Shown: positions 49,363-57,802, counted from the stretch's first letter. The stretch: 64,000 bases of DNA from an uncultured Coprococcus sp. (GCA_947632705.1 CANRQE010000006.1:2974-66973); one strand, 5' to 3'. Program-made: numbers and translations. Notes: generated by a model from the sequence alone, not told the origin.

Positions 49363-52038
49363 CTACTCAATGGATACTACTTCGTAATCCTGCTCCTCCA
49401 CAGCCTGCTTCAATACTGCGTCCGCAACGTCTGCATCTAAGGTTACGATTGCCGTACCCTTTTCATGACTGACGACAGCCTCTGTTACCTGGGGCAGCTT
49501 TTCCAGACTCTTCTTTACTCTTGCCTCACAATGTTCACACATCATTCCCTGAATATGCATTACTTTTTCCATTTTCTTCTCCTTTCCGGTTTCAATACCG
49601 GTTTCATTTTGACTGATATTAATCTCTGCTTTCTCTTTATTGACTCCAAGCATTTTACCTGATTGTTTCTGACGGGAAGTCTGTTTGATTGTTACCCTGT
49701 ATTTCTTTGTTTTATCATAAATATTCACAAGATTCAACCTTAATGCGTTACTTACTACACAAAAACTGGACATACTCATTGCAAATGCACCAAACATCGG
49801 ATTCAATGTCCATCCGAAAACAGGATACCACACGCCTGCCGCCAGAGGAATTCCGATCACATTATAGATAAATGCCCAAAACAGATTTTCTTTGATGTTT
49901 CTGGTGGTCGCCATACTTAACCGCAGAGCAGCAGGTACATTACGCAGTCCCGCCTTCATCAGAACCACATCCGCGGCATCGACAGCAATGTCCGTCCCGG
50001 TTCCGATTGCAATACCGATATCTGCTCTTGTTAATGCAGGCGCATCATTGATTCCGTCTCCTACCATAATAACCTTATGGTTCTTCTTTAGTTCTTTGAT
50101 CACAGCCTCCTTTCCGTCCGGTAAAACTCCTGCAATGACCCGGTCAACTCCCGCCTGTCTGCCGATTGCCTCCGCAGTCTTCTGATTGTCTCCGGTTAAC
50201 ATAACTACTGATATTCCCATATCCTTCATTTCCCGGACGGCTTCTGCGCTGTCCTCTTTGATCACGTCTGCAACCGCAAAGATTCCGACCAGCGTCCCTG
50301 TTTTGACGTTTGCTGCAGCTTCCGGTTTCTTTATCTCCTTTTCATTCAGGCAAACGAAATACAAAGGTGTTTTTCCTTCCTCGGAAAATTGATCCGCCAT
50401 CTCCTTTTGCCCGCTTGTAATATCTATATATTGGTTTACATAATTATAGTTTCCGCCAATCATTTTTCTGCCGTTCACAACGCCCTGCAAACCGTTTCCC
50501 GGATAGATCTGAAAGTCTTCCACTCCATATGGGACAATCCCAATCTCCGCACCCTTTTGCATAACCGCTTTTGCTAACGGATGCTCACTGTATTGTTCCA
50601 GAGAGCAGATCAGTCTGACTGCCTCCTCCTCTGTAAATTCCGGTCCGCAGATTACGTCTGTTACCTGCGGTTTCCCATGCGTAATGGTTCCTGTCTTGTC
50701 AAGCACCACCATATCCGCCTTGCCGGTCTGCTCCAATGCGGCTGCCGTTTTAAACAGAATCCCCTGTTTTGCACCGACTCCGTTTCCTACCATAATGGCG
50801 ACAGGTGTGGCAAGCCCCAATGCACAGGGGCAGCTGATGACCAGAACGGATATGCCTCTTGCCAAAACGAACCCTGCGCTCTCTCCTACAGCAATCCATA
50901 CCAGAATCGTAAGCAGGGCAAGCAGAATGACTACAGGCACAAAGATTCCCGATACCTGATCTGCAATTTTTGCAATCGGCGCTTTTGTTGCCGCAGCATC
51001 ACTGACCATATGGATAATCTGTGCCAGAGTCGTATCTTCCCCTACATGTGTCGCCTCACACTTCATATAGCCGGACAGATTGATGGTTGCAGCAGACACG
51101 CTATGTCCCGGTTCCTTATCTACCGGAATACTCTCGCCGGACAAAGCCGATTCGTTCACGGCACTGTTTCCGTCTATGACAATTCCATCTACCGGAATAC
51201 TCTCGCCGGGACGCACAACAAAGATATCTCCGACTATGACGTCCGCGGCGGCAACCGTTTCCTCCTTCCCGTCTCTGATTACAACCGCCGTCTTCGGAGC
51301 CAGCTTCATCAGTCCCTTTAAAGCATCTGTCGTTTTTCCCTTCGAATATGTCTCCAGTGTCTTTCCGACTGTGATAAGCGTTAAGATCATGGCAGCAGAT
51401 TCAAAATATAAATCATGCAGACAATGCATAGCCATTTCATCGTTATGGCGTACGACTGCATCCGTCATAACGAACAAAACATATACGCTGTAAATAAAAG
51501 ACGCCCCGGAACCTAACGCCACCAAGGTATCCATATTGGGTGCCCGGTGCAGCATTCCTTTTGCACCGCTTATGAAAAATTTTTGATTCACGACCATGAT
51601 CATTACCGTAAACAAAAGTTCCGCCAAGCCCAGGGCAACAGGATTATCCGCCAGTTTCTGCGGCACAGGCCAGTTCCACATCATATGACCCATGGACAGA
51701 TACATCAGGGGAAGCAGCAGTATTAACGAAACCGTCAGTCTACGTTTCATGCTGCGAAGCTCCCGTTTTTCCACATCCGTACCTTCTCCCTCCGTCCGAA
51801 CAACATTCTGCACGGAAGCAGCTCCGGCCGCTGTATGTGCCCCTGCTTTTTCAGCACCGTACCCGGCCTCCTCCACTGCGGCAATCACAGCTTCCGGTGA
51901 TGCAGATCCCTCCACCATCATCGTGTTCGTCAGCAGACTGACGGAACAGCTGCTTACGCCCACTACCTGACTGACAGCCTTTTCTATACGACTACTGCAG
52001 GCGCTGCAGGACATACCTGTGACTGTATATTGATCCAT
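49363..52038 (-). CDS. copA: Copper-translocating P1B-type ATPase with N- and C-terminal HMA domains
   Basis: GMSCSAC, CPC, DKTGT, SEHP, GDGINDAP, YN...M motifs, C-terminal GMMCEHC. Start moved to 52038, after AAGGAG. Confidence 0.93.
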   Translation of the reverse strand: MDQYTVTGMSCSACSSRIEKAVSQVVGVSSCSVSLLTNTMMVEGSASPEAVIAAVEEAGYGAEKAGAHTAAGAASVQNVVRTEGEGTDVEKRELRSMKRRLTVSLILLLPLMYLSMGHMMWNWPVPQKLADNPVALGLAELLFTVMIMVVNQKFFISGAKGMLHRAPNMDTLVALGSGASFIYSVYVLFVMTDAVVRHNDEMAMHCLHDLYFESAAMILTLITVGKTLETYSKGKTTDALKGLMKLAPKTAVVIRDGKEETVAAADVIVGDIFVVRPGESIPVDGIVIDGNSAVNESALSGESIPVDKEPGHSVSAATINLSGYMKCEATHVGEDTTLAQIIHMVSDAAATKAPIAKIADQVSGIFVPVVILLALLTILVWIAVGESAGFVLARGISVLVISCPCALGLATPVAIMVGNGVGAKQGILFKTAAALEQTGKADMVVLDKTGTITHGKPQVTDVICGPEFTEEEAVRLICSLEQYSEHPLAKAVMQKGAEIGIVPYGVEDFQIYPGNGLQGVVNGRKMIGGNYNYVNQYIDITSGQKEMADQFSEEGKTPLYFVCLNEKEIKKPEAAANVKTGTLVGIFAVADVIKEDSAEAVREMKDMGISVVMLTGDNQKTAEAIGRQAGVDRVIAGVLPDGKEAVIKELKKNHKVIMVGDGINDAPALTRADIGIAIGTGTDIAVDAADVVLMKAGLRNVPAALRLSMATTRNIKENLFWAFIYNVIGIPLAAGVWYPVFGWTLNPMFGAFAMSMSSFCVVSNALRLNLVNIYDKTKKYRVTIKQTSRQKQSGKMLGVNKEKAEINISQNETGIETGKEKKMEKVMHIQGMMCEHCEARVKKSLEKLPQVTEAVVSHEKGTAIVTLDADVADAVLKQAVEEQDYEVVSIE

Positions 52039-52079
52039 AGAACCATCTCCTTCCATTTCTTACCTGACTGCCATAAACT

Positions 52080-52379
52080 CTATTTCATCAGCTTCTGCAT
52101 TGTCTGTACCAGATCCTCTATGGTTTCGTCCTTTCCCGCACGGATATCATCCACAACACAGGTTCTGATATGCTCGGCTAACAACTCCCTGTTAAAGCTG
52201 TTCAATGCAGCATGAATTGCAGAAACCTGAATCAGAATATCCGTACAATAAGCATTCTTTTCGAGCATTCCTTTTATACCCCGGATCTGACCCTCAATCC
52301 GGTTCAGACGATGCATCAGCTTCTTATATTCGGTTTCTGCCCGTTTTTTCTTCCTGCAGCCACATGTTAATTCATCCAT
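52080..52379 (-). CDS. csoR: CsoR-family metal-sensing repressor
   Basis: RLNRIEGQIRGI, C-DILIQ, H---C ligands. Directly upstream of copA. Confidence 0.92.
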   Translation of the reverse strand: MDELTCGCRKKKRAETEYKKLMHRLNRIEGQIRGIKGMLEKNAYCTDILIQVSAIHAALNSFNRELLAEHIRTCVVDDIRAGKDETIEDLVQTMQKLMK

Positions 52380-52525: not shown

Positions 52526-53053
52526 CTATGATACCGATTGCATCTTCGACGATATCCGTGCCGCATATCCCGGCGCTTTCCGCTCCCGATGTAGTGCCAG
52601 CTCTTTAAATGCACAAACTTTATCCGCAAAGCATACCAACACGGCCTCTCTCGATTTCGGCAATTTGGTAATTGTAAGCGGCCACATATGGCTTGCTATA
52701 ATATTTCCAACCTTATCCGTAATCTCAAAACAGGTTTTTGCGTTTTCCAACGCACTGGCCGGATGATGGGTCAAATGTTCATATCCTCCGATTGCATCCT
52801 GTTCCCGATAGTTATACAGATAAAAATCGTGCAGTAAAGCGCCCATTGCAAGACTTTTCTCATCAATTCTGATATGCAGTCTCCTTGCCAGAAAATAACT
52901 GCATTCTGCAACATTCAGACAATGGGTATAGGTAGTCGTTACCTTATGATGGCTGAGCTTTTTCATCTGTTTTACCTTTGCATTCTCCGATATCTGAAGA
53001 ACGGTCTGATGAAAAACAGAGGTGCTGTCAATCATATGCTCATTTTTTTTCAT
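52526..53053 (-). CDS. Small HD(IG)-domain phosphohydrolase
   Basis: HH...HC...LLHDFY...HP...SHMWP...AD motif pattern. Confidence 0.8.
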   Translation of the reverse strand: MKKNEHMIDSTSVFHQTVLQISENAKVKQMKKLSHHKVTTTYTHCLNVAECSYFLARRLHIRIDEKSLAMGALLHDFYLYNYREQDAIGGYEHLTHHPASALENAKTCFEITDKVGNIIASHMWPLTITKLPKSREAVLVCFADKVCAFKELALHRERKAPGYAARISSKMQSVS

Positions 53054-53185
53054 GAATCTCTTTCCTCATTTTCCGGTTTTGATGCTGTATTCTTACATTC
53101 TTACTATAACGGAACTGCATCGGAATTTTCAAGGTTTTTTTATTGGCAATTTTCTGCCAATTTTTTCCTTTTTTCTCTGACAGCC

Positions 53186-54601
53186 TTAACCGACTGTTCC
53201 ATACTCATATTCCTGATAACCACCCATGCTCTTTGCCTGTTCCAGCAGGTCTATCACTGTTCCATCCATTGCATTGAGGATAACCAGCTGTCTTGGATAA
53301 GCAGATTCATCCGAATCAACATATTCTTCATACTGGGAGAATACCCATACCGGTATATATTTATAGGAATTTTCTTTTCCTTCATCAACTACCGGATAAT
53401 AACTCAGACGCACATCATTAAAATCAATCTTTTTATAGTTCGTCGGATATTTTTCATAATATGCCGGTATATTTTCATTGGCGGCCTCAAGCATCTCATC
53501 CCAGGTCATCAGATCCACATTTGTTTCTTCCTCTCCCGTAGCAGTATACAGGATTGTCCAATAGGCTTCCAACACTCCATTATCATCCACATATACGGAA
53601 AAGGTTTCAGAAGGCATGTTAATCCATGCATCATCCATATTAAGATTATCGACATTGTAAACCTGTCCCTGATATGCGGGCGTACCATTGATGCCTCTGT
53701 TATAATGTATCACATAACCGTCATATTCCGTCGCAATGTCCTCTCCTGAATTACCATCATAATAATCCCACTCCAGAACATGAGTCTCTGCCTGCACCAT
53801 ATCGGTCACTCCGCACCTGCTCAGGAACTCATCTGCCACGCCGCAGGCTTCCTCCTCCGTCATCTGACAATAATTATTTTCAGTAAAATCTTTTGTGAGA
53901 GGTCCATCATAACAGTATCCGTTGGTTGCACCTTCATATGGCCTGTACTGAAATTCATCCATCGGCATCAGATTTGCCGTCATTCCCGGAGCATCTATTT
54001 CCTCATTCACATATATGCTTACACTGTATTCCCGGCCATCCATCATACCGATAAAATCGCTGCCGGAATAGTCTCCGGCTGCCGGATATTCATCCGGAGC
54101 ATCCTGCAGTTCTTCCTCTAACTGTGCAATATAGGAATCATACCACGGATCTGTATAACCCTGTTCTGCCATGTTGGCCTGATCCTGTTTGATGCTTTCT
54201 ATTTCTGCTTCAATTTCACTTTTAATACGATGCTCATAATCCCGCTCGTAAATCCCCTGTCCTTTATCTAAGAAGGATTCCACCAGCTGCTGCTTATATG
54301 CATTATCAATCTGAATCTGCTCATAATATCCGACAGACATACCGTCAGAACTCGGAATCCCTACCTCATCGTCTGTCAGATTAATACTCTGCAGTCCCGA
54401 CGATCCGGTATTGATACTGACATCACAGGATTCCGGTATTCCAAGTCTTCCTGCAAGACCGCCCTCCGTACTGCTGCCGTTTCCAGATGGGTTGTCTCCC
54501 ATATTGTAATCCACTTCTTTTTTTCCACAGCCCGAGGTCAGCATCAGAACTGACATTGTTCCTGCAAGCATCCATGCCGTTATTTTTTTTCTTGATATCA
54601 T
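53186..54601 (-). CDS. Acidic lipoprotein of unknown function, tandem paralog A
   Basis: Signal peptide ending LTSGC, then GKKEVDY. D/E/Y-rich. C-terminal YIPVWVF...ILNAMDGTVI. Confidence 0.75.
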   Translation of the reverse strand: MISRKKITAWMLAGTMSVLMLTSGCGKKEVDYNMGDNPSGNGSSTEGGLAGRLGIPESCDVSINTGSSGLQSINLTDDEVGIPSSDGMSVGYYEQIQIDNAYKQQLVESFLDKGQGIYERDYEHRIKSEIEAEIESIKQDQANMAEQGYTDPWYDSYIAQLEEELQDAPDEYPAAGDYSGSDFIGMMDGREYSVSIYVNEEIDAPGMTANLMPMDEFQYRPYEGATNGYCYDGPLTKDFTENNYCQMTEEEACGVADEFLSRCGVTDMVQAETHVLEWDYYDGNSGEDIATEYDGYVIHYNRGINGTPAYQGQVYNVDNLNMDDAWINMPSETFSVYVDDNGVLEAYWTILYTATGEEETNVDLMTWDEMLEAANENIPAYYEKYPTNYKKIDFNDVRLSYYPVVDEGKENSYKYIPVWVFSQYEEYVDSDESAYPRQLVILNAMDGTVIDLLEQAKSMGGYQEYEYGTVG

Positions 54602-54665
54602 TTTTCTCTCCCTTTCATTTTACTTTTTCACATTATGTTATTTCACAGGCGTTTGAGCCATAAAA

Positions 54666-56096
54666 TCAACCGGAAACTGTTGATTCAAAATAAACATCAC
54701 TATCATCATATTCTTCATACAATCCCATTTTCTTTGCTTCATCAATCAAATCTATAATGGTTCCGTCCATTGCATTGACAATCAAAAGCTGTGACGGACA
54801 TTTTGACTCATCTGAATCGATCAGCTCCACATATTCTGAAAACACCCACACCGGTATAAATTTATAGGAGTGCCCTTTGTCCTCATCGACAACCGGATAA
54901 TAACTCAGGCGCACATCATTAAATTTAATCTTTTTGAAATTCGACGGATACTTTTCATAATACGCCGCTATGTTTGCATTTACAGCCTCAATCATCTCAT
55001 CCCAGGACATGAGTTCTGCATTCGTTTCCTCTTCTCCGGCGGCTTCAAACAAAGCTGTCCAATATGCCAAAAATACACCGTTGTCATTTACATATATGGA
55101 AAACGTTTCTAACGGCATATTAATCCATGCATCCTCCATGATAAGAAAATCCAAATCGTAGATTTCGGCCTGATATACCGGTGTGTTATTTACTGCTCTG
55201 CTGAATTCTATAAAATAGCCGTCGTATTCCGTTGCCAGCATTTCACTGTAATCCTGATTAAAATACTCCCATTCTACAACGCTGACTGCTGACAGAACCA
55301 TATCCGTAATGCCAAACCGGTTCAAAAAATCTCCCGCTACATCACAGGCCTCTTCCTGCGTAATCTGACAAAGATTATTTTCCGTAAAATCCTCTGCAGA
55401 CGGCCCGTTCACAAAAACAACGTGATCCGCACCTTCATATGGCCTGTATCCGGATACATCCTCCAGTCTCAAGGCGGCAGAAATACCAAAGCCTGCCTCT
55501 CCTTCGTCTATCTCAAACTCGTATTCCCGTCCATCCATCATACCGATAAAGCTGCTTCCCGAATAGTCTCCTGCAGCCGGATATTCATCCGGAGCGGTCT
55601 GTAATTCTGTTTCGAGTTCAGCAATATATTCATCATACCACGAATCTGTATACCCCTGTTCTGCCATGTTGGCCTGATTCTGTTTGACACTTTCTATTTC
55701 TGCCTCAATTTCGCTTTTGATACGATGCTCAGCATCCCGTTCGTATATTCCCTGCTCCTTATCTAAAAAGGTTTCCACCAGCTGCTGCTTATAGGCGTTA
55801 TCAATCTGAAGCTGCTCATAATAACATACGGACATCCCGTCGGTATTCGGGATCTCAATCGCATCATCTGCTGCAGTAATACTCTGAAGCCCTGACGATC
55901 CGGTATCAAAGCTGACATCACAGGATTCCGGTATCCCAAGTCTTCCTGCAAGACCGCCTTCCGTACTGCCTTGTTTGTCTCCCTGATTGTCATTCAGATT
56001 ATAATCTATCTCTTTCTTCCCACAGCCGGAAACAAAGGTGCCCAACAGCATAGCTCCTGTCAGCATCAAGGCAGCTGATCTTTTATCTATCTGCAT
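54666..56096 (-). CDS. Acidic lipoprotein of unknown function, tandem paralog B
   Basis: Lipobox FVSGC-GKKEIDY, highly similar to paralog A. Start moved to 56096, after GAGGT. Confidence 0.75.
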   Translation of the reverse strand: MQIDKRSAALMLTGAMLLGTFVSGCGKKEIDYNLNDNQGDKQGSTEGGLAGRLGIPESCDVSFDTGSSGLQSITAADDAIEIPNTDGMSVCYYEQLQIDNAYKQQLVETFLDKEQGIYERDAEHRIKSEIEAEIESVKQNQANMAEQGYTDSWYDEYIAELETELQTAPDEYPAAGDYSGSSFIGMMDGREYEFEIDEGEAGFGISAALRLEDVSGYRPYEGADHVVFVNGPSAEDFTENNLCQITQEEACDVAGDFLNRFGITDMVLSAVSVVEWEYFNQDYSEMLATEYDGYFIEFSRAVNNTPVYQAEIYDLDFLIMEDAWINMPLETFSIYVNDNGVFLAYWTALFEAAGEEETNAELMSWDEMIEAVNANIAAYYEKYPSNFKKIKFNDVRLSYYPVVDEDKGHSYKFIPVWVFSEYVELIDSDESKCPSQLLIVNAMDGTIIDLIDEAKKMGLYEEYDDSDVYFESTVSG

Positions 56097-56239
56097 CACA
56101 TTTACCTCTTCATCATTGTCTTTCTCTGATATCATCGTCTTATGACAGTCTGCCATTTCGGTAATATCATAGCATATCCCGGCATCTAAAGTGCATATTT
56201 TTTCTTAATATTTCTTAACAAAGCCGTTACAGATGCTTT

Positions 56240-57682
56240 CTACTCAACAAACATATCATCATCCAGTCCTTCATCATAAAAATTGTCTCCTGCTCCGGTT
56301 CCGTTCTGATTCATCATCTCCGGCAGATCGATCACATCACCGGTAACTGCATTGATCATAACGACCTGGGTCGGACTGTCATCATTATATTCCCCTTCAT
56401 ATTCTTCAATCTGTGCAAATACCCATACAGGTATATACTGATAGGTATCCTCTTCTTCATCCTTCACCAGATAATAGGTCAATCTGATATCGTTGAAACT
56501 CAAAGCGTTAAAAGAAGTCGGATATTTTATATAATAATTCGGAATGGCAGTATCGGCAATCTCCAGAATCTCATCCCAGCTTAGTAAATCCACGTTGTTT
56601 TCCGTTTCCTCCGGAGGCAGCAGAAGATCAAAACAATCAGCGGCAAAGATTCCGTTATCATCCAGATATACGGAATAGGTTTCATAGGAAGGGCCTCCGA
56701 CAAAGAAGGTGTCTCCGGACTGCAGATTGTCCACCATGAAAAAGTACGCCTGATATGGTGCACATCCGTTGACAGCACGGGTAAAGGTAACCAGATAACC
56801 ATCCAGTTCACTGGCAATTGTATTTAACGAGGCATCCGTATAATCCCATAATAAATCCGTGACCGAATCCAGAACCACATCCTGAATACCACAGTCATTC
56901 AAAAAATCTTCGGCAATCTCAGCTGCTTCTTCTGCAGACCAGCTGCACCGGTTCTCCTGCCCGTCCTCGTTGAGGCTGGTATAGTAAAACGCCTGGGTCG
57001 CACCTGCATAAGGGCGGTACAGAATCTGACTTTCATACGGATGTATGGAAAAAGAAAAATAACTGGACAATCCGTTCTCACTCGGTGAAAAGCTCAGTCT
57101 GAACTGTGTGCTTCCGATCTTGCCAACATAATCCAGGGCAGACCAGTCTCCCGGTCCTTCCCGCTCTTCTACCGCATCATCATACTGTGTCTGAAGCTCT
57201 TCCAGGTACTGCTCATACCAGGATGCGTTTGCCGTATCCCCGATGTCATTTGCATTATCCAGAAGCATCTGGTAAATCTGCATTTGTACTTCCACATCCT
57301 GCTTATAGCTGACATCCCAGTCATATCTGTAGATTCCGCCGGAACGGTCAAATATCGTTTCTGCTACTGTCTGTCTGTATCCGGCATCCATCAGATTCTT
57401 TTTTGCATGCACAATACTCATCCCGTCCGTAGACGGAACCTGTATATCTTCATCCTGGATCGTAATCTTACTCAGGCCGGATTCTCCTACAGGGATCTCT
57501 CCCTCATAAGATTTCGGAATCCCAAGTCTTGCCGAAAGATCCCCCTCGGTATTTCCACCTGATTCATCGCTTTCCCCAAATTCATAATCTACCGTTTTTT
57601 TTCCGCATCCTGACAATGCCATAGACGCAGAAAGCGTAAAAATAAGCAGGAATACTGCCATCGCTCTTCTTTGTTTTTTCAT
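56240..57682 (-). CDS. Acidic lipoprotein of unknown function, tandem paralog C (more diverged)
   Basis: Lipobox ALSGC-GKKTVDY. Shares RLGIP, YRPY-GA and YIPVWVF...INA-G-VI motifs with A and B. Confidence 0.75.
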   Translation of the reverse strand: MKKQRRAMAVFLLIFTLSASMALSGCGKKTVDYEFGESDESGGNTEGDLSARLGIPKSYEGEIPVGESGLSKITIQDEDIQVPSTDGMSIVHAKKNLMDAGYRQTVAETIFDRSGGIYRYDWDVSYKQDVEVQMQIYQMLLDNANDIGDTANASWYEQYLEELQTQYDDAVEEREGPGDWSALDYVGKIGSTQFRLSFSPSENGLSSYFSFSIHPYESQILYRPYAGATQAFYYTSLNEDGQENRCSWSAEEAAEIAEDFLNDCGIQDVVLDSVTDLLWDYTDASLNTIASELDGYLVTFTRAVNGCAPYQAYFFMVDNLQSGDTFFVGGPSYETYSVYLDDNGIFAADCFDLLLPPEETENNVDLLSWDEILEIADTAIPNYYIKYPTSFNALSFNDIRLTYYLVKDEEEDTYQYIPVWVFAQIEEYEGEYNDDSPTQVVMINAVTGDVIDLPEMMNQNGTGAGDNFYDEGLDDDMFVE

Positions 57683-57802
57683 ACCTGACTCCCAAATCCC
57701 TGATGTTAGACTGTACCGTCCGTACGACGTTTTTTATTATAAGACATATTTTATACCATTCTGCCGTAAAATACCAGCACAACGGAAAAAAACTGCCCGC
57801 AT

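Follow-up and report, generated by a model that had tools for sequence, protein, structure and literature searches.

The window analysed here is a stretch of 64,000 nucleotides from an uncultured Coprococcus sp. (GCA_947632705.1 CANRQE010000006.1:2974-66973). It carries on its minus strand three neighbouring, co-directional genes, called A, B and C hereafter, that code for predicted lipoproteins of the Pfam family DUF6034. Gene A (53186-54601) encodes a protein of 471 residues and gene C (56240-57682) one of 480 residues, and the open reading frame (ORF) of gene B extends from 54666 to 56156 (496 residues); all three ORFs were found at these coordinates. The true start of B is likely the internal ATG at 56096, because a GAAGAGG ribosome-binding site precedes it and the resulting protein of 476 residues (54666-56096) agrees with the database entry P0003.

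Read from their sequences, A, B and C have the positively charged n-region, the hydrophobic core and the lipobox Cys of bacterial lipoproteins. The lipoboxes end in LTSGC (Cys25, in A) and in FVSGC and LSGC (Cys26), and they continue into a CGKKxxDY consensus (SGCGKKEVDY, SGCGKKEIDY and SGCGKKTVDY, one per protein). The lipobox Cys is invariant across 60 homologues. The mature chains start at this putatively lipidated residue and contain no transmembrane helix, and the lipobox predicts that all three proteins are lipid-anchored. A Pfam scan found no cell-wall anchoring signals or adhesin-type repeats in them. Mature A, B and C are highly acidic, with an isoelectric point of ~4.05, a net charge of -67 to -70 and ~20% Asp and Glu, and just 0.65% of the ORFs of the source genome are as acidic per residue. 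A and B share 66% of their residues, and A and C share 39%. The most similar part of A and B includes positions 54121-54300 and 55621-55800, which are 86-90% identical at the nucleotide level. The ending PVWVF...NAxDGxVID is conserved in all three proteins. A preliminary description of the locus had reported three highly acidic lipoproteins of ~470-480 residues with an SGCGKKxxDY motif, A and B being very similar even in their DNA and C diverged, and these points were borne out.

The same description gave the proteins no known function; a hidden Markov model search showed that their family is already catalogued. A, B and C match PF19499 (DUF6034; model length 481 positions, gathering threshold 27 bits) with E = 5e-30 and 105.2 bits (model positions 70-477), E = 3e-27 and 96.2 bits (42-477), and E = 8e-20 and 71.6 bits (41-477), respectively. 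No NCBIfam model matched them in our scan. The family is restricted to Clostridia; it was found in 25 of the 151 genera of the source organism's family, and a sampling of 250 genomes from the whole class gave 7 that have it. An exhaustive profile search of representative clusters collected 3,326 of them at E <= 1e-3, all family members, with no bridge to any named family. The copies of the source genome score 57-105 bits against PF19499, versus 200-410 bits for canonical members, and the clade of the source genus aligns end to end with the canonical clade (hhalign probability 100%, E = 1e-45). A, B and C belong to a divergent DUF6034 subclade that forms tandem arrays and is no longer part of the canonical cassette, in which the gene is found with an ABC-2-type ATP-binding cassette (ABC) exporter and a two-component system. 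DUF6034 is known as a Pfam entry, though unstudied; what is new here is the gene module conserved around it, the class of its fold and how the A/B/C array arose.

The AlphaFold2 model of A obtained with 60 homologues (predicted local distance difference test, pLDDT, 87.3; predicted template-modelling score, pTM, 0.83) comprises, past the lipid anchor, a disordered linker, along with an N-terminal beta domain, a helical hairpin and three modules of the alpha+beta type. When residues 176-471 were modelled on their own, the pLDDT reached 89.4. In Foldseek searches of the PDB, 5coz was the best match both for the full model (E = 1e-9, probability 1.0) and for the C-terminal model (E = 3e-6, probability 1.0), with template-modelling (TM) scores of 0.35-0.45. 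This best structural likeness is the uncharacterized EUBREC_2869 of Eubacterium rectale, from the same bacterial family as the source organism. It differs from A in being shorter (347 residues), sequence profiles miss the relation, and no paper of the searchable literature mentions EUBREC_2869.

The full model also matched Bacillus subtilis YycI (E = 1.5e-4, probability 0.92, TM-scores 0.17-0.30) and YycH (E = 0.2), and both were absent among the 50 matches listed for the C-terminal model. The latter matched the FTP/PepSY propeptide of vibriolysin MCP-02 (3nqz_A/3nqy_A, E = 1e-3 to 1e-2, probability 0.99-1.0, TMt 0.46-0.50), and it is predicted to contain the helix packed on a four-stranded antiparallel sheet of solved PepSY/FTP structures. 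The two sets of matches agree with each other, since YycI is treated as a PepSY-type regulator, and PepSY/BLIP-like folds are regarded as partner-binding modules (PMC4282423). Two family profiles run against PDB sequences returned noise alone, with no match to any solved structure, 2o3o and 2fgt included. Within the genus clade, conservation is highest in the N-terminal domain and in the last PepSY-like module, and sequence variation and indels are most frequent in the middle modules. Strong acidity is common to all copies. The PepSY-like ending noted in the preliminary description is conserved and resembles the vibriolysin propeptide in fold, but at E <= 0.1 neither PF03413 nor its clan matched any of the three proteins.

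Given this fold, the proteins might act on a secreted protease or cell-wall hydrolase as inhibitors or chaperones of the PepSY type, comparable with M4 propeptides or with YpeB and SleB. Proteins made of PepSY copies and a signal peptide alone are a recognized group (PMC4282423). The C-terminal modules resemble the vibriolysin propeptide, one canonical DUF6034 paralogue has a weak YPEB_PepSY1-2 match (E = 0.005, under the cut-off), and a GH25 lysozyme gene is located two genes downstream of a DUF6034 array in another genome (L013). Nevertheless, no protease or hydrolase gene was consistently found nearby in the 47, 20 and 16 loci described below, the conserved neighbours are transporter and kinase genes, and A, B and C themselves lack a Pfam PepSY match. 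We consider this explanation quite improbable.

To obtain the genetic environments of the family, neighbourhoods were rebuilt for DUF6034 genes of 20 other genera and for another 80 loci from named organisms (among them Blautia schinkii, B. luti, B. faecis, Fusicatenibacter and Petralouisia), collected with a four-sequence canonical query. A set non-redundant at 80% identity contains 47 canonical loci, from Blautia and other Lachnospiraceae. This reconstruction replaced a test of proximity to FtsX genes, which was dropped because its chance background was too high: the 24 DUF6034-bearing genomes hold between 1 and 44 FtsX matches (most of them 10-25). The analyses revealed a co-directional module coding for a response regulator (RR), a histidine kinase (HK), DUF6034 (1-3 copies), two membrane proteins, a small ABC ATPase and a CARDB/DUF11 surface protein. 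The ABC-2 cassette is present in 14 of the ~20 loci from other genera. Among the 47 non-redundant loci, the permease and ATPase genes directly follow DUF6034 in 42, a CARDB-type protein is encoded in 41, and a complete RR and HK pair precedes DUF6034 in 33. Median gaps are -4 bp between the RR and HK genes, 98 bp between the HK and DUF6034 genes and 2 bp between the DUF6034 and permease genes, the last gap being 10 bp or less in 64% of the loci. With a median distance of 2 bp to the permease gene versus 98 bp to the kinase gene, DUF6034 opens the transporter unit and is no mere extension of the kinase gene, and the gap between the HK and DUF6034 genes is wide enough to hold a regulated promoter.

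The canonical ATPases of three loci have their best NCBIfam match in TIGR03740, a lantibiotic protection ABC model (172-181 bits), and one canonical permease has a weak ABC2_membrane_2 match. The canonical kinase has an extracytoplasmic loop of ~150 residues and a catalytic core whose best matches are WalK, PnpS and PhoR. In nearly all cases (41 of 47), the last gene of the cassette codes for a secreted protein of 430-750 residues with CARDB/DUF11/NPCBM_assoc Ig-like repeats (L016-L034 and L052-L131; e.g. L016:642-1937 and L021:7879-9366). Just upstream of one canonical cassette, inspection of an ORF (L021:2263-2739) showed an N-terminus resembling C39-type bacteriocin-processing peptidases, which hints at a bacteriocin context.

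The near-fixed and tight coupling of DUF6034 in front of ABC permease genes leads us to favour, tentatively and with somewhat less than even confidence, the reading that A, B and C assist ABC exporters of the peptide-resistance type as extracytoplasmic partner or capture proteins. This predicted function would involve a physical partnership with the exporter, the binding of peptides and a role in resistance or sensing. We propose that the proteins would sit lipid-anchored on the outer face of the cytoplasmic membrane, with a beta domain at the N-terminus, a helical hairpin and three alpha+beta modules of the PepSY/FTP-like (YycI-like) kind. The ancestral DUF6034 protein would have served as lipoprotein component in an ABC exporter module under the control of a sensor, with the gene order RR-HK, promoter gap, DUF6034-permease-permease-ATPase-CARDB surface protein. 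The conserved end modules might dock on the extracytoplasmic part of the transporter or on partners, and the acidic, variable middle modules might bind cargo or a trigger, most plausibly cationic antimicrobial peptides. By analogy with LanI and LanFEG, DUF6034 would sequester the peptide or pass it to the exporter.

The main competing explanation is that DUF6034 lipoproteins are accessory regulators like YycH/YycI or LpqB, which bind the extracytoplasmic loop of the kinase, the ABC exporter being merely a regulated output. PepSY-type regulators of two-component systems include YycI and BqsP/Q (PMC4282423). The Foldseek match to YycI and the weaker one to YycH, the RR-HK pair directly upstream in 33 of the canonical loci, and the long extracytoplasmic loop and WalK/PhoR-like core of the kinase all agree with such a role. 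Furthermore, a five-gene DUF6034 array in a Coprococcus metagenome-assembled genome (MAG) is divergent from an RR-HK pair, and two contig ends of the source genome, described below, would fit a junction between a two-component system and DUF6034. However, the gene is coupled to that of the permease and not to that of the kinase, and 14 of the 47 loci have no complete RR and HK pair within five genes, most of these still with the transporter. YycH and YycI have an N-terminal transmembrane helix that contacts the membrane helices of the kinase, whereas DUF6034 proteins are lipoproteins. The TM-scores with YycI are low, the match was not recovered with the C-terminal model, and no sequence match to the YycH/YycI models (PF07435/PF09648) was found for A, B or C in the Pfam and NCBIfam scans. 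Lastly, no two-component system is present near the orthologue of C in the genus-mates, where infC and rplT are upstream. A modulator of the kinase is therefore unlikely in our view. The relation to YycH/YycI-like regulators without a link to a transporter, envisaged in the preliminary description, holds by half: there is a weak fold match, yet the transporter link exists.

Next to the array in the window, the minus strand carries a MacB/FtsX-type ABC operon. It ends with the gene of a 380-residue ATPase (57872-59014; PF00005, E = 5e-35), whose best NCBIfam matches are of the LolD/MacB type, under their cut-offs, and which is 81-88% identical across genus-mates; it has an acidic N-terminal extension of ~85 residues and a C-terminal extension. 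Preceding it are the genes of a second ATPase of 224 residues (58980-59654; PF00005, E = 5e-33), conserved among genus-mates, and of a duplicated FtsX/MacB-type permease of 937 residues (59658-62471), with PF02687 in two stretches and a weak MacB_PCD match. The permease is present in 23/23 sampled genus-mates and in 0/17 genomes outside the genus. An HlyD-like adaptor lipoprotein with HlyD_D23, Biotin_lipoyl_2 and RND_mfp matches is encoded from 62486 to 64000 and past the window end; its whole length of 765 residues was taken from the genome contig beyond the window. In this exporter (57872-64000 and beyond; contig C6:60845-68799) each part is doubled, with 348- and 765-residue adaptor-like lipoproteins, a fused double FtsX permease and ATPases of 224 and 380 residues, and the 765-residue protein appears internally duplicated. 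The whole doubled set is kept in 16/16 examined genus-mates and was not found outside the genus.

The gene order in 16/16 genus-mates is adaptor-like lipoprotein, HlyD-like lipoprotein, FtsX permease, ATPase, ATPase, one DUF6034, CsoR and CopA, with infC and rplT upstream of the exporter operon. The window has a CsoR-like repressor and a CopA-type copper ATPase at 49363-52379, and their place after the DUF6034 gene is conserved in the genus. In the source genome, B, A and an HD-domain gene sit between C and CsoR-CopA. The latter gene (52526-53053, minus strand; PF01966, E = 2e-9) follows A and is found at this position in the source genome only.

The source genome contains eight DUF6034 genes and one remnant, and the genus-mates have 3-13 matches each, with multiple paralogues in every one, often as tandem arrays elsewhere in the genome; the family is thus expanding as first suggested. 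In the maximum-likelihood tree, C groups with the transporter-linked orthologues of the genus-mates (95/96). A and B are sisters (97/98) in another well-supported subclade, together with copies of contigs C7 and C9. Two in-paralogues of C are dispersed on contigs C1 and C38 of the source genome. From the tree grouping and the synteny of the 16 genus-mates, C is the ancestral copy linked to the exporter, and A, B and the HD-domain gene were added in the source lineage. The locus is therefore a tandem array of three family members, as described initially, but we rejected a simple triplication: C and A/B belong to separate subclades, and region-wise identities disagree. A and B are 83% identical over residues 46-195 (third-position identity 0.67-0.83), versus 65% with P0002, the nearest outside homologue, and over residues 196-317 the identity of A with B (48%) is lower than that of A with P0002 (55%). 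Because of these incongruent regional identities, the N-terminal halves of A and B appear to have been homogenized by gene conversion, the middle modules having been kept different.

Such features would also be expected of variable surface proteins without any tie to the transporter (for instance adhesins, antigenically varying envelope proteins or phage-receptor decoys), whose position merely reflects inherited gene order. Copy numbers are large and variable in the genus, some tandem arrays (e.g. L013) and dispersed copies are away from transporters, the middle modules vary in sequence and length, and gene conversion affects the N-terminal halves of A and B next to a divergent middle; the array also has promoter-like boxes of its own and a terminator before it. 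This possibility is rather improbable, as it leaves unexplained both the near-fixed, tight coupling to ABC permease genes in the canonical clade and the repeated adjacency to MacB-type genes in the source genome, where a MacB-type ABC is followed by DUF6034 twice (the contig C6 locus and the remnant on contig C7). Furthermore, A, B and C have no cell-wall anchor or adhesin-type repeats.

Other copies have contexts of their own. A fourth, divergent DUF6034 lipoprotein of 451 residues heads the ABC operon past the window end (contig C6:68914-70269; 57.4 bits against PF19499, over nearly all of the model). It pairs in the tree with the first gene of the five-gene array of the Coprococcus MAG, an uncertain pairing, since both are long branches. 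Contig C6 ends 204 bp upstream of this head copy. On contig C16, a kinase gene (C16:42776-44177) has its start codon 4 bp from the contig end, and its product is orthologous to the kinase of the MAG array (52% identity); a junction of contigs C6 and C16, the response regulator having been lost in the assembly gap, would fit. Contig C7 (C7:23940-35996) harbours a second MacB_PCD/FtsX-type ABC (Pfam), with upstream genes that look by inspection like an Agr-like quorum-sensing set (AgrB-like protein, kinase and LytTR-type regulator) and with a small secreted protein encoded before the ABC genes. After the latter come a DUF6034 fragment truncated at both ends, DUF4062-type-looking and transposase-looking genes and a full-length DUF6034 gene. 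In another genome (G021, contig C50:9582-22730 and 56127-66241), a five-gene DUF6034 array occurs twice, in mirror image and with identical scores, which points to a large inverted duplication or else to an artefact of the assembly.

Between the exporter operon and the array, the strong terminator announced in the preliminary description was found at 57804-57832. On the minus strand, it is an intrinsic, bidirectional terminator of the A-tract/hairpin/T-tract type with the sequence AAAAAAATCTGCC-TTG-GGCAGATTTTTTT, which forms a 14-bp stem between the A and T tracts (free energy -18 to -23.5 kcal/mol; z = -3.8). The gaps between C and B and between B and A contain no hairpin comparable to it. 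A putative promoter upstream of C (57731-57760, minus strand) consists of TGGTATAAA and TATAAT boxes read from the sequence, and TATAAT-like boxes are also present in the corresponding gap of genus-mates. Downstream of A, a hairpin at 53130-53165 has a T-run on the plus strand alone. A thus lacks a canonical terminator, because A residues and not a T-run follow this hairpin on its own strand, and its transcription may read through towards the HD-domain gene.

Applied to the locus, the partner or capture reading would mean that in the source genus a MacB/FtsX-type exporter that has HlyD-like adaptors gained a C-type copy as its fixed neighbour. C would serve this exporter, and A and B, added behind it from another subclade, would widen the repertoire. 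Several observations weigh against this. The exporter next to A, B and C is of the MacB type, unlike the ABC-2 type that is canonical for DUF6034, and the terminator and the array's own promoter-like boxes set the array apart from the ABC operon. A and B are not next to the transporter in 16/16 genus-mates, and the in-paralogues of C on contigs C1 and C38, as well as arrays of relatives (L013 and L015), are away from any ABC transporter. Since the conserved order of the genus extends to CsoR-CopA, the linkage of C with the exporter may be mere collinearity. The acidity of A, B and C is not specific to them, as several other lipoproteins of the source genome are equally acidic. In the canonical cassettes, the TIGR03740 scores of the ATPases fall under the curated cut-off of 310. 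NisI and SpaI are neither in the PDB sequence matches (E <= 10) nor among the 50 Foldseek matches listed for each fold search, and DUF6034 is mentioned in no paper of the searchable literature.

A functional link with ABC transporters, as first proposed, is plausible: the family heads ABC units, and the orthologue of C follows the operon in 16/16 genus-mates. Only C is the conserved neighbour of the adjacent transporter, A and B being additions of the source genome from another subclade, and the canonical transporter is ABC-2 (LanFEG-like), not MacB-type. The suggestion that the array codes for immunity proteins against a polymorphic toxin or a contact-dependent effector fared less well. It draws on the general pattern of tandem, diversified genes of small families, but no toxin, Rhs, LXG, WXG100 or type VII secretion gene is present near the array, in the window or at the related loci, and proteins of ~450 residues that are exported as lipoproteins differ from small cytoplasmic immunity proteins. 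With no toxin gene among the ORFs and Pfam matches around the array or at related loci, we rejected this reading as highly improbable.

A broader and more doubtful proposal is that DUF6034 represents an undescribed class of PepSY-like lipoproteins, the obligatory third component of a widespread envelope module of Lachnospiraceae made of a two-component system, an ABC exporter and a CARDB protein, possibly as an extracellular subunit for capture or coupling. In Coprococcus-type genomes it would have been re-used alongside type VII (MacB) exporters and would have multiplied, giving arrays whose variable, acidic middle modules supply a repertoire of specificities for bacteriocins or cationic peptides of the host. 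Blautia, Coprococcus, Roseburia and other Lachnospiraceae are abundant commensals of the gut, and to our knowledge their resistance to bacteriocins and host antimicrobial peptides is poorly known. The uncharacterized DUF6034 proteins now gain a concrete, testable context, a module of seven genes with tight coupling between the lipoprotein and an ABC permease. Should the partnership be true, they would be a new kind of accessory subunit for peptide-resistance ABC systems, which would explain up to a dozen diversified copies per genome. If it is false, DUF6034 still marks a conserved, unstudied envelope module.

Compared with known systems, the C-terminal modules of DUF6034 resemble the vibriolysin propeptide in fold, and their NAxDGxxID ending resembles the end of PepSY domains. 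Streptomyces SspA is likewise a lipoprotein composed of PepSY modules (PMC4282423). Unlike PepSY/FTP proteins, DUF6034 has an additional N-terminal beta domain and a helical hairpin, and no protease partner is encoded nearby. With YycH and YycI, regulators of WalK in B. subtilis, DUF6034 may share an extracytoplasmic, multi-module alpha+beta fold, and in 33 of the 47 loci the canonical gene is downstream of an RR-HK pair. It differs from them by its lipid anchor, low TM-scores, absence of a Pfam match and coupling of its gene to that of a permease.

Operons for lantibiotic resistance or immunity of the Cpr/LanFEG type join an ABC-2 exporter with a two-component system and, in some cases, a lipoprotein (PMC5786555). 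The Cpr module of Clostridioides difficile (cprABC, cprK-R and the adjacent lipoprotein CD1348, of undefined role) is similar to the canonical cassette by its parts list (PMC5786555); besides these Cpr-like parts, the latter includes a CARDB-type surface protein. DUF6034 proteins are about twice the size of LanI proteins, and no lantibiotic biosynthesis genes were seen near them, unlike in LanI systems. The LanFEG-like neighbour is a feature of the canonical clade (42/47), A, B and C adjoining a MacB/FtsX-type exporter instead. Like LanI (NisI, SpaI) with LanFEG and LanRK, the canonical DUF6034 lipoprotein is found beside an ABC-2-type exporter, with an ATPase closest to the LanF-type model though under its cut-off, and a two-component system (PMC5786555). 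The logic proposed to be common to LanI and DUF6034 would be the capture or shielding of a peptide beside an exporter.

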